DNA of 64,000 bases from an uncultured Chloroflexia bacterium (GTDB taxonomy: Bacteria > Chloroflexota > Limnocylindria > Limnocylindrales > CSP1-4): positions 896,613 to 960,612 of the forward strand of contig CAWIYR010000002.1 of assembly GCA_963840375.1 (NCBI GenBank). The letters are read 5' to 3'. Made by a program: the position numbers and the translations under genes. How positions within the stretch are numbered: the first letter of the stretch is position 1; the number at the start of each line of letters is the position of its first letter. The notes beneath the pieces were generated by a model. It made no database searches and was not told the DNA's origin. It saw nothing but the letters and a program-made list of their open reading frames with translations. Positions 7,649 through 46,857 of the stretch are shown here, one piece after another.

Positions 7649-9289
7649 TCAGGCGGGTGGTCGGACCCCGGGCCGACGGCGGGCGTCTCCGTCACCGGCC
7701 AGAAGGGTGTCGGCCATCGCGTTGGCCTGGGCGGCCGCGTTCGGGGACCCGGTCATCGCATAGAGGAACGACTCGCGGTCGAGCGCCCACAGCTCGAGGT
7801 CCCCGACCGCGGTCACGGTGGCCGTTCGGGGGATGTCGCGGAGCAGGGCGATCTGGCCGAACGGGTCGCCGGGTCCGAGCGTTCGGATGAGCCGGTCGCC
7901 CTGGCTCACCGCCACGGTCCCGGTGGCCAGGACGTAGAAGCGGTCGCCGATGTCGCCCTCCCGGATGACGACCGTCCCGGCGGGCATCGTCAGCCGGACC
8001 AGGTTCCGGGCGACGACCTCGAGGGCCGGTGCCGGGACCGGGGCGAACAGGGCGAGCCGACGGAGGATCTCGATCTCCCGGACGGGGATCCGGACCCCGG
8101 CCTCCACGCCCACGAGCCGGGATGCGGACGCGAGCACGACGACCGGCAGGAAGGCCGCGGTCAGCAGCGTGGCGCCGGCCAGCCCGAGCGCTCCGTAGGC
8201 GACCGTCGCGAAGACCGAGCCGACCGCGAGACCGGCCATGGCGAAGCCTTCGACGAGCCCGAAGACCCCGGCGAGCACCTCACCGGGTGAGATCCGCTGG
8301 AGGAGCGTCCGCCCGGCGACGTCGACGACCGCGAGCCCGATCCCGCCGATGACCAGCAGGACGAGCGCGACCGCGGTGACCTGGACCCCGGCCACGATGG
8401 CGAAGGCCGTGCCCCAGACCGCCGCACCGACCGCCAGCCAGCCGGAGAGACGGCCGCGCCCCACGAGGACGAGCGTCGTGGCACCCCCCAGGACACCACC
8501 CAGGCCCAGGGCCGCATTGAGGTAGCCGGCCCCCGATCCGCCGATGCCCAGGGATTCGGTCGCGTGGAGCACGAGCAGGACGTCGAGCGCGCCGATCGCC
8601 GCGAACCGGCCGGCCAGGATGAGCACCACCAGGAGACGGTTGGCATCGCCGAGCACCGCCCGCGCGCCGTCGAGCAGGCCCGGCGTCGCGGCGGCCGGCT
8701 CGGGCGGCGGCGCCGCCCGTGTCGGCGCGTCGGGTGTCCTCGACCCGTCGGTCGGCGCCGGTGCTTCCGTCGCCGGGTGAGCCGAGCGCGCCCTGACCGT
8801 CGCGACGAGCCCGGCCGAGACCAGGCACAGCAGCGCCGCCGCGACGTAGACGCTCCCGGGCGACCAGACCGCCATGAGGAGCCCGGCCGCGAGCGGGCCG
8901 AAGAGGACGCCCCAGCCCTCGAAGATCGCGTTGATCGCGTTGGCCGAGGTGAGCTCCTCGGCCGTGTCGGCATATGCCGGCAGGATCGCACCCTGGATCG
9001 GCCGGGGCATCGTCACGGCCGAGGCGGCGACGATGGCGCAGGCGTAGACGACGGCGGGTGGCGCGCCGGCGACGATCGCCAGGCCCGTGGCCAGGCTCGC
9101 CAGGCCCAGGAGCAGGTAACCGGCGAGCAGCACCCGGTCGCGCCGGTACCGATCGCCGAGGCTTGCCGCGAGCGGCGCGAAGACGACCGCCGGGACGAGC
9201 TGGATGACCGCGATCGCCCCGACCGAGGCCGGGCCCGTCGCCTCGTAGGCGAACACGAGGATGGCAACCCAGGTCCCGTACTCGACCAC
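7649..9289 (-). CDS. MFS transporter fused to a C-terminal cyclic-nucleotide-binding (cNMP/Crp-like) domain
   Basis: About 12 TM helices, followed by ...LALFAPVPAPALEVVARNLVRLTMPAGTVVIREGDIGDRFYVLATGTV...GPGDPFGQIALLRDIPRTATV. MFS-like sequence (LTSFRRVLANRDLRRLELAYLGFN) continues upstream of the GTG at 9289 without a canonical start codon. Confidence 0.8.
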   Translation of the reverse strand: MVEYGTWVAILVFAYEATGPASVGAIAVIQLVPAVVFAPLAASLGDRYRRDRVLLAGYLLLGLASLATGLAIVAGAPPAVVYACAIVAASAVTMPRPIQGAILPAYADTAEELTSANAINAIFEGWGVLFGPLAAGLLMAVWSPGSVYVAAALLCLVSAGLVATVRARSAHPATEAPAPTDGSRTPDAPTRAAPPPEPAAATPGLLDGARAVLGDANRLLVVLILAGRFAAIGALDVLLVLHATESLGIGGSGAGYLNAALGLGGVLGGATTLVLVGRGRLSGWLAVGAAVWGTAFAIVAGVQVTAVALVLLVIGGIGLAVVDVAGRTLLQRISPGEVLAGVFGLVEGFAMAGLAVGSVFATVAYGALGLAGATLLTAAFLPVVVLASASRLVGVEAGVRIPVREIEILRRLALFAPVPAPALEVVARNLVRLTMPAGTVVIREGDIGDRFYVLATGTVAVSQGDRLIRTLGPGDPFGQIALLRDIPRTATVTAVGDLELWALDRESFLYAMTGSPNAAAQANAMADTLLAGDGDARRRPGVRPPA

Positions 9290-9475
9290 GTTGAACCCGA
9301 GGTAGGCGAGCTCGAGGCGGCGCAGGTCCCGGTTGGCGAGGACGCGTCGGAACGAGGTCAGGGCGATGCCGACGCGGCCCGTCGTGCTGGGCAGGGCGGT
9401 CTCTCCGGTCGCTCATCGGCGCCGCTGGCCGGGCCGTGGGTGAGCAGAGTAGCGCCTCGGCGACTCGCTACACTT

Positions 9476-9489
9476 GGTGTCTCGACACC
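9476..9489. promoter_or_regulatory. Perfect palindrome GGTGTC-tc-GACACC upstream of the ALDH gene (candidate operator)
   Basis: A 14-bp dyad 64 bp upstream of the ATG at 9553, in the divergent MFS/ALDH intergenic region. It has a GntR-type GT..AC architecture. Confidence 0.3.
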
Positions 9490-9552
9490 TGGACGATTCG
9501 CCGCCTCTCGCGCTCGACCGGGAGCCCCTCGCTCGACAGACGGAGCACCACG

Positions 9553-11133
9553 ATGACGACCGACGCGACCCCGCGGATGAAGATCACCTACGCGACCCTG
9601 CGCAACGACAACGAGGCGCTCCACGCCGCCTACGAGGTGGGCCTCGCGAAGGCGAAGGCCGGTCTCGGGCAGTACCACCCGAACCTCATCGCCGGGAAGC
9701 CGCGGGACGGCGACGGCGTCATGACCGTGCGCACGCCGATCGACTCGGAGATCGTCCTCGGCACGTTCGCCCGGGGGACCCGCCGCGACGTGGTCGACGC
9801 GATCGCGGCCGCGCGGGCCGCCCAGCCGGCCTGGGCCGCGACCCCCTGGCGGGAGCGCCTGGCGATCATCCGTCGAGCGGGCGACCTCATCAGCGAGCGC
9901 CAGATGGAGTACGGCGGGTGCATGGCCATCGAGGTCGGCAAGAACCGGCTCGAGGCCCTCGGCGAGGTCGAGGAGGCGGCCGACCTGCTCCGCTACTACA
10001 GCGATGTCATGGAGCGCAACGACGGCTACGACCACCCGATGGACAACCTCGGCGATCCTTCCGTCCACACCCGGTCGATCCTCCGGCCGTTCGGGGTGTT
10101 CGCGGTGATCAGCCCGTTCAACTTCCCGATGGCCCTGTCCGCCGGGCCGACGAGCGCCGCGATGATCGCCGGGAACACGGTCGTGTTCAAGCCGTCGAGC
10201 ACGGCCCCGCTGTCGGCGGTGAAGCTCATGGAGGCCTACCGGGACGCAGGCGTCCCCGACGGCGTCGTGAACCTGGTGATGGGCCCGGGCGAGACGGTCG
10301 GCGAGGAGCTCCAGACCAACCCCGGGATCGACGGGATCGTCTTCACCGGCTCGTACGAGGTCGGGTTCGACCTGTTCAAGCGATTCTCGACGGCCTTCCC
10401 GCGACCGTGCATCGTGGAGATGGGTGGCAAGAACCCGGCGATCGTGACCGCCAAGGCGGACCTCGAGGAGGCGGCCGAGGGGATCCTGCGGTCGGCCTTC
10501 GGCTTCGGTGGGCAGAAGTGCTCGGCGAACAGCCGGGTCTATGTCGAGCGGCCCGTCCACGACGAGCTCGTCCGGCTGCTCGTCGAGAAGACCGAGAAGC
10601 TGACCATCGGCGACCCGCTGCCGCGGGAGAACTGGCTCGGTCCGATCATCGACCAGCGAGCCGTGGATCGGCACCAGGCCGCGGTGTCCGAGGCGCGGCG
10701 CGATGGGACCGTCTTCACCGGCGGCGAGCGGCTGACCGACGGCGCGCTCGCCCGCGGCTTCTACGTCGAACCGACGGTCGTCGGGAACCTGCCGGTGGAT
10801 CACCGCCTCTTCCGCGACGAGCTGTTCGCACCCCTGACCGCTGTCGCGGCCGTCGACTCGCTCGACGAGGCGATCCGGCTCTCGAACGAGAGCGTCTACG
10901 GCCTCACCGCCGGGATCTTCAGCGAGGACCCGGCCGAGGTCCAGACGTTCCTCGACGGGATCCACACCGGCGTCCTCTACGTGAACCGACGGGCCGGCGC
11001 GACTACCGGCGCCTGGCCGGGCGTCCAGGCCTTCGGCGGCTGGAAGGGCTCGGGCTCGACCGGCAAGGCCGGCCTGTCGATGTACTACGTGGCCCAGTTC
11101 ATGCGCGAGCAGAGCCACACCGTCGTCGACTGA
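9553..11133 (+). CDS. pruA: L-glutamate gamma-semialdehyde (1-pyrroline-5-carboxylate) dehydrogenase-like aldehyde dehydrogenase
   Basis: EVGKNRLEALGEVEEAADLLRYY, FNFPMAL, EMGGKNP, GQKCSA, and a C-terminal YVNRRAGATTGAWPGVQAFGGWKGSGSTGKAG typical of RocA/PruA-type P5CDH. Confidence 0.75.
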   Translation: MTTDATPRMKITYATLRNDNEALHAAYEVGLAKAKAGLGQYHPNLIAGKPRDGDGVMTVRTPIDSEIVLGTFARGTRRDVVDAIAAARAAQPAWAATPWRERLAIIRRAGDLISERQMEYGGCMAIEVGKNRLEALGEVEEAADLLRYYSDVMERNDGYDHPMDNLGDPSVHTRSILRPFGVFAVISPFNFPMALSAGPTSAAMIAGNTVVFKPSSTAPLSAVKLMEAYRDAGVPDGVVNLVMGPGETVGEELQTNPGIDGIVFTGSYEVGFDLFKRFSTAFPRPCIVEMGGKNPAIVTAKADLEEAAEGILRSAFGFGGQKCSANSRVYVERPVHDELVRLLVEKTEKLTIGDPLPRENWLGPIIDQRAVDRHQAAVSEARRDGTVFTGGERLTDGALARGFYVEPTVVGNLPVDHRLFRDELFAPLTAVAAVDSLDEAIRLSNESVYGLTAGIFSEDPAEVQTFLDGIHTGVLYVNRRAGATTGAWPGVQAFGGWKGSGSTGKAGLSMYYVAQFMREQSHTVVD

Positions 11134-46515: not shown

Positions 46516-46586
46516 CGGCCGCTCCCGGACCGCGTCAGGCGGTCATCGACCCGGGCCATGGGCACCCTCTGGCCCGGACCCTCGCG

Positions 46587-46619
46587 CGACGCCCCGGACC
46601 GCCTTCCACCGGGGCGTCG
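46587..46619. terminator. Strong GC hairpin between convergent genes (candidate bidirectional terminator, no U-tract)
   Basis: CGACGCCCCGG (46587-97) pairs with CCGGGGCGTCG (46609-19): an 11-bp perfect stem with an 11-nt loop. Confidence 0.4.
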
Positions 46620-46673
46620 TCGCGTCCGTCGCCCGGTCCGATCGTGGTGATCGCGACCGGGCCGTGAGGTTCG

Positions 46674-46857
46674 TTACTTCTTGACGACGATCCCGCCGGC
46701 GCTGAGGGCGATCGGGCTCGCGGCCGTGCCGACCCGGTGGTACAGCGTGCCGGCCGATGTGGTCGCGGCACGTGCCGGTCGCGAGGGCCCGGCGGCGGTC
46801 GCGCGGGATGTACGCCTCGGGGTTGTCGCGCTGGAGCTCGACCGTGGCGTCGCCCAT
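46674..46857 (-). pseudogene. Small ORF (about 61 codons) of unknown function, split by a +1 frame change
   Basis: ATG at 46857 followed by 37 codons with 37/37 G/C at position 3 (MGDATVELQRDNPEAYIPRDRRRALATGTCRDHIGRH). GC3 then collapses. The +1 frame shows 23/23 GC3 codons (LYHRVGTAASPIALSAGGIVVKK) ending at TAA 46674. The total of 184 nt is not a multiple of 3. Confidence 0.45.

Follow-up and report, generated by a model that had tools for sequence, protein, structure and literature searches.

Reading-frame anomalies in a hydrogenase-bearing contig of a Limnocylindrales bacterium: probably three unrelated origins

When several genes in one stretch of DNA appear to be out of frame, and each can be mended by skipping a single base, do these anomalies share a cause? 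This question is raised by a stretch of 64,000 nucleotides (referred to here as the window) on contig CAWIYR010000002.1 of an uncultured Chloroflexota bacterium, which carries a gene cluster for a group-1 uptake [NiFe] hydrogenase. Four such anomalies had been described in an initial annotation: within hupL, which encodes the large subunit of the hydrogenase, at the end of hypF, at the start of a gene for an MFS transporter and in a small open reading frame (ORF). The four junction strings are all present in the DNA, on the plus strand at 35156-35174 (hupL) and 39877-39895 (hypF) and on the minus strand at 9395-9416 (MFS transporter) and 46740-46761 (small ORF). The annotation had taken all four as one-base (+1) anomalies and had seen, in four of four cases in the same direction, a sign of systematic insertion errors. 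The first statement stands for hupL and hypF, each of which has a true extra base, and falls for the other two, as the transporter site carries no indel and the small ORF is the remnant of a gene. With only two genuine cases among the four (n=2), a directional bias cannot be claimed. The four anomalies are probably three unrelated things, that is, two insertions, one start-codon case and one deletion scar, and the common +1 pattern is not real.

The window has a G+C content of 72%, and the closest genes to its own come from the 'Candidatus Limnocylindrales' group of uncultured Chloroflexota. The proteins of the window itself are on record, in NCBI as well as in ENA, from one contig only, of 1,216,802 bp, a size that suggests a long-read metagenome-assembled genome (MAG). 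Near-identical strains, 98-99.8% identical to the window, are present in soil and wetland metagenome runs (X1 to X4) and in JGI assemblies, so that each of the four sites could be tested directly. Furthermore, the whole 64 kb was scanned with a plot of G+C at third codon positions (GC3) by frame and with a seven-state frame hidden Markov model with stop penalties. Such a scan had been proposed as a means of finding further breaks; it recovers the one in hupL and no other. In the model there is exactly one same-strand switch without a bounding stop codon, between 35167 and 35168, and all remaining transitions end at a stop, within the resolution of the model.

The extra bases in hupL and hypF

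The hupL gene (33860 to 35570, plus strand) measures 1711 nt in the window vs 1710 nt in the intact ortholog, and its GC3 phase flips at about position 35150. In the first frame, HupL is encoded as far as ...ETQLIGHR, with nonsense from there to the stop at 35536; the gene as written thus specifies residues 1-437 followed by 121 out-of-frame residues. This frameshifted product of 558 amino acids (P0103) is recorded on the window's own 1,216,802-bp contig only. The true C-terminus of HupL, with DPCMACAVH, sits in the +1 frame, which runs ...LQPWLTEL...DPCMACAVH... and reads ...LQPWLTELAENL...DPCMACAVHVYDPDAGSSVEIRVV up to its stop codon. In relatives, HupL aligns across the junction without a gap, as for example LIAARMADWLTEL vs LIGHRLQPWLTEL.

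The extra base is the A of CCG[A]GCT at 35170 and not a C, because near-identical contigs leave out exactly this position and because the protein read through without it matches an independent HupL. Contigs from three runs (X1, X2 and X4) omit base 35170 at all depth, and one run contig without it matches the window at the other 227/227 positions. Read without A35170, HupL is 100% identical over 569 amino acids to P0001, the HupL of a JGI contig of 14,181 bp (sample 3300075153). The latter contig, which was compared by gene table and protein rather than by DNA, is also without the base: its HypA is identical to that of the window, its listed genes run collinear with positions 27860-39732 (11.9 kb), and the only shift in the offset between the two, by exactly 1, falls inside hupL. 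The C proposed in the initial annotation, giving ...H-E-L, was off by two positions; the actual sequence of the protein is ...H-R-L.

The mature chains in the PDB end at residue 554 of the HupL query, which is the His of DPCxxCxxH. A35170 removes the last 132 residues of HupL, including this motif, and would in this way cut off the C-terminal pair of Ni-binding cysteines.

In hypF, the anomaly is not an internal break but a lost stop codon. The ORF as written extends on the plus strand from 37534 to 40299 and encodes a HypF-HypC fusion of 921 amino acids, in which Pfam recognizes a HupF_HypC domain in addition to the full set of HypF domains; the frame stays open up to the MCLGIPGK with which HypC begins. 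Without the G at 39886 (TCC[G]CTC), which had been correctly pointed out as the extra base, hypF runs from 37534 to 39934 and encodes 799 amino acids, and its TGA (39932-39934) lies inside the Shine-Dalgarno sequence of hypC. The latter gene (39949 to 40299, plus strand, MCLGIPGK...) is intact, with a GGAGGA Shine-Dalgarno sequence and an ATG of its own, and in two JGI contigs a gene of its own is called for the identical product of 116 amino acids.

Only one of the run contigs, from X4, truly spans position 39886, and it does so without the G. Contigs from X1 and X3 that seemed to cover the site with the G were discarded as chance matches of about 30 bp with unrelated flanks. The G is absent as well from a JGI contig of 1512 bp (L167), which is 98.4% identical to the window, encodes an identical HypC and has its single gap relative to the window exactly at 39886. 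The HypF of this contig ends at a TGA 14 nt before the hypC ATG, inside TGAGGAGGA. The closest HypF homolog (P0121, 86% identity) has 799 amino acids, which is the length obtained by reading through, and ends ...GPAVTLTRNP; the read-through tail of the window likewise ends LTRNP. A HypC domain is found in 0 of the 120 closest HypF homologs, and an exact look-up of the 921-residue product returned no record. G39886 is therefore a derived insertion, because L167 and the X4 contig are without it, the length and tail of P0121 match the read-through and none of the 120 homologs is fused to HypC. Its effect on hypF is mild: it lies 16 codons before the stop, so that the last 16 residues are altered and the stop is lost, and hypC keeps a ribosome-binding site of its own.

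The tail of HypF and the spacer between hypF and hypC (39868-39946) are hypervariable among co-occurring strains; in contigs from X3 and X4, unrelated sequences of 14-22 bp replace about 78 bp. Single-nucleotide polymorphisms (SNPs) are located 5 and 12 bp from G39886. In a region of this kind, a consensus can be led astray by a mixed pile-up.

How frequent are differences of this kind elsewhere? One-base length differences from near-identical contigs were tabulated over positions 1-61000. The window is longer by one base at 4865, 5479, 5511, 5858, 9496, 35170, 39886, 52761 and 52790, and shorter at 9488, 20424 and 46768. Except for 35170 and 39886, all of these sites are in spacers or in 62-bp or 16-bp tandem repeats, and the differences go in both directions; they are ordinary strain polymorphism. 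The extra bases at 4865, 5479, 5511 and 5858 were considered as further frameshifts and rejected on account of their position in spacers and in these repeats. The non-coding spacer 5416-5886 contains a 62-bp repeat in 2.2 copies (5453-5588), a 16-bp repeat in 4.1 copies (5745-5809) and (GGCC)n; over this spacer, strain X1 shows several one-base indels and a copy-number change of 42 bp. A pattern scan of a collection of metagenome contigs with both length variants at the hupL and hypF sites gave 0 matches, which indicates that the collection is without these samples.

A sequence context of the type ATCGGCC..CAC, shared by the hupL site and the small ORF, had been thought to be perhaps a coincidence. 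This is borne out by the frequency of CATCGGCC, which has 11 hits vs 8.4 +/- 2.7 expected, as by chance.

The transporter start and the small ORF

The third site concerns an MFS transporter fused to a C-terminal cyclic-nucleotide-binding domain (Pfam MFS_1 and cNMP_binding; 7649 to 9394, minus strand). The +1 reading had been prompted by an out-of-frame ATG (9414 to 9416, minus strand) that overlaps an in-frame TGA as ATGA. The frame of the transporter is open from 9412, with no ATG, GTG or TTG until the GTG at 9289, and the ATG at 9416 is shifted by one base relative to this frame. An extra A had been postulated at about 9404. The sequence as written is confirmed by three other assemblies: no indel is seen in the X1 and X3 contigs that cross the site, and a JGI contig that is 1.7% diverged overall (L169) is base-for-base identical to the window from 9485 to 9368. 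There is consequently no extra base, and the nearby ATG is a coincidence.

The most likely start of translation is the CTG at 9394-9392, which is in frame. A GGAG is located 8 nt upstream of it, at 9406-9403, and the Met of homologs that begin MPTTTRL..., MPASRL... or MPTRL... aligns with this CTG (LPSTTGRV... in the window). The public call of 546 amino acids from GTG 9289 is too short, with a conserved N-terminal segment lost, because the homology begins well upstream of that codon and RRVLANRDLRRLE.AYLGF is strongly conserved; the product of a sister strain (P0361) is likewise called at 546 amino acids. The simplest reading of the site is a near-cognate CTG start or a weakened start, not a frameshift. 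The site is reminiscent of near-cognate CTG starts in bacteria in that the codon stands at the Met of the homologs, has GGAG 8 nt upstream and is retained in a sister strain diverged by 1.7%. This putative start could equally be the loss of a start codon that weakens expression. The rarity of CTG starts in bacteria also speaks against initiation here. In the spacer between the transporter gene and an aldehyde dehydrogenase gene, a small divergent patch (9486-9500) shows compensating +1/-1 differences (9496 and 9488, respectively) relative to X1, X3 and L169.

The fourth site is of a different nature. The small ORF (46543 to 46908, minus strand) sits in a spacer of about 430 bp with a Pyr_redox gene on one side and a class-III aminotransferase gene on the other; it has no Pfam match and no Rfam match. 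Part of this spacer, 46773-46884, is conserved in many relatives, where a gene transcribed divergently from the aminotransferase gene beside it has this stretch as its 5' end, ...DDPEAYIARDRRRALA...GAALFADISGFTPLTEA... This gene encodes a protein of about 1,240 amino acids with Guanylate_cyc, AAA_16 and TPR domains. The match in the window is limited to residues ~5-30 of this protein and ends after ...RRALATG. What is left is a 5' remnant of about 28 codons (M...DNPEAYIPRDRRRALATG; 46774 to 46857, minus strand) of an adenylate/guanylate-cyclase, AAA_16 and TPR gene, and the ORF has no homology beyond 46774.

Nothing in the window matched the remaining cyclase gene, even at E<=10. An internal deletion with the 3' end of the gene preserved in 46516-46773 was rejected, as no similarity was found there even at E<=10. 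A riboswitch upstream of the aminotransferase gene was rejected as well, since the DNA has no Rfam match and encodes the N-terminus of the divergently transcribed cyclase; an Rfam scan of the whole window (1-64000) gave no family at its gathering score. In one relative (L172), about 8.7 kb separate the aminotransferase gene from the Pyr_redox gene. These 8.7 kb, which are absent from the window (46516-46950), comprise the gene of about 1,240 amino acids plus about 5 kb more; what the window keeps is the promoter side with the initial ~28 codons. The cyclase/AAA/TPR gene has been lost in this lineage together with about 8.7 kb, and the frame past the deletion junction is meaningless. The small ORF is a deletion scar under no constraint. 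The proposal that skipping a base restores a joined frame finds no support: the ORF is the stump of a larger gene, and other strains are longer here, not shorter. At 46763-46770, X1 has one base more than the window, by which the ORF would acquire a TGA, and X2 has three more, with substitutions.

Error, mutation or recoding

What remains to be explained are the two bases A35170 and G39886. We hold with fair confidence that both are assembly errors. They would have entered the consensus when a mixture of very similar strains was assembled from long metagenome reads, and in the organism itself the group-1 uptake hydrogenase locus would be intact. Both bases occur on no contig other than the window's own, of 1.2 Mb, and are missing from all independent near-identical contigs that span them. 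Residual consensus indels that split or fuse gene calls have been described for long-read (Nanopore and PacBio) metagenome assemblies (PMC9262707; 10.1101/2021.08.23.457338), with frameshifted gene calls especially in MAGs of less than 40x coverage (PMC9262707). The window resembles these cases: on a megabase contig, single extra bases break one otherwise perfect gene apiece, short-read assemblies of the same population are without them, and removal of the bases restores full-length HupL and HypF, collinear with their orthologs. The idea of assembly insertion errors in a functional hydrogenase locus, already put forward in the initial annotation, therefore fits hupL and hypF, with the rest of the cluster intact, and is wrong for the transporter and the small ORF.

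Several points weigh against an assembly error. The usual residual Nanopore error is one of homopolymer length (PMC9262707), and unlike such typical indels neither insertion is a change in homopolymer length, as the A at 35170 stands between two G, splitting GG, and the G at 39886 stands inside CCC. Both insertions fall in the hydrogenase cluster, which makes up about 18% of the window, as decay of the pathway would also give. The support at hypF comes from strains that are only about 98.4% identical, the X4 contig and L167 have their SNPs in common and possibly come from one sample, and the region of the tail is hypervariable among strains. Finally, the choice of error over real mutation is itself an inference.

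Could the two bases then be real and recent mutations? According to this explanation, the uptake hydrogenase has just been inactivated and hypF is drifting under relaxed selection, with sister strains remaining intact. The location of both events within one functional cluster, at a distance of 4.7 kb from each other, would agree with it, as would the lack at both sites of the homopolymer context typical of residual long-read errors and the presence of the frameshifted product in the public record of the source contig. We nevertheless consider it unlikely. No other sign of decay, be it extra stops, an excess of amino-acid changes or broken partner genes, was found in the hup and hyp genes: hupS, hupC, hupD, hypA, hypC, hypD and hypE are all intact, and the HupL read-through is 100% identical to the intact ortholog. 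Every independent near-identical contig is without the bases. Two events would fall by chance in an 11.5-kb cluster within 64 kb in about 18% of cases. Moreover, non-duplicative insertions of one base are uncommon as natural mutations. If the insertions were real, one Limnocylindrales population would very recently have lost its group-1 uptake hydrogenase, with HupL truncated before the Ni ligands and the hypF stop lost, and co-occurring sister strains would have kept it. Strain-level loss of H2 oxidation in soil or wetland Chloroflexota would then have been caught in the act, albeit as a modest example.

An extension of the assembly-error explanation to all four anomalies, as systematic +1 insertion errors, draws on the fact that each of them is formally mended by skipping one base. 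It is very improbable, given that the transporter site is identical in X1, X3 and L169, that the small ORF is a gene remnant at which other strains are longer, and that the other one-base differences are in spacers and tandem repeats and go in both directions. Programmed +1 ribosomal frameshifting at one or more sites would account for the +1 direction at hupL and hypF, and a Shine-Dalgarno-like GGAG and a rare AGA codon are found beside the putative shift in the transporter gene. The likeness to the +1 frameshifting of the prfB (RF2) type is limited to the direction of the shift. At hupL and hypF, orthologs and near-identical strains are unshifted and there is no conserved shift site; unlike in prfB, an in-frame stop and a CUU-type slippery codon are lacking, and a prfB-type slippery or stop-codon motif is found at none of the sites. 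Neither CAC CGA GCU in hupL nor UCC GCU CGC in hypF contains a stop or slippery codon, the transporter site is without a P-site codon able to re-pair, and this site is more simply explained by a CTG aligned with the Met of the homologs. With orthologs and sister strains unshifted and no shift motif present, programmed recoding is extremely improbable and effectively excluded.

It follows from the four sites that several frame anomalies, each mendable by one skipped base, need not share a cause. With consensus error as the preferred explanation for A35170 and G39886, it would be prudent in annotation to credit this genome with an intact group-1 uptake [NiFe] hydrogenase (hupSLCD and hypAFCDE), and with neither a hydrogenase pseudogene nor a new HypF-HypC fusion.

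The hydrogenase cluster and its surroundings

Judged by its genes, the hydrogenase locus is intact apart from A35170 and G39886. It includes, all on the plus strand, hupS for the small subunit with a TAT signal (32635 to 33858; Pfam TAT_signal, Oxidored_q6 and NiFe_hyd_SSU_C), hupC for a cytochrome b subunit (35584 to 36480; Ni_hydr_CYTB), a hupD/hycI-type gene for a maturation endopeptidase (36477 to 37025; HycI), hypA (37101 to 37442; HypA), and hypD and hypE (40296 to 42577; HypD, AIRS and AIRS_C). HupS and the endopeptidase have the same lengths as on the JGI contig, 407 and 182 amino acids, respectively; an exact look-up of HupS returned no record. A product identical to HupC is encoded on another contig, of 1 kb, and one identical to HypA on 6 other contigs. 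No hypB was seen in the hyp cluster, for which no aimed search was made.

In its gene order, the TAT signal of HupS and the presence of a cytochrome b subunit, the locus is similar to other operons for group-1 membrane-bound uptake [NiFe] hydrogenases (hupSLCD and hypAFCDE), for example those of the membrane-bound hydrogenase of Allochromatium vinosum (3myr) and of Hyd-1 of Escherichia coli (3uqy). HupL of the window shares with these enzymes the C-terminal DPCxxCxxH followed by an extension of 15 residues. Unlike in these operons, hupL as written is without its last 132 residues in frame and hypF is without its stop. On the 3' side of hypE (42543-46515), genes are found for a VIT1-family transporter, an ArsR-type regulator and, twice, a DsrE/TusA pair; this sulfur-handling set also holds a Pyr_redox_2/FCSD protein resembling sulfide:quinone oxidoreductase.

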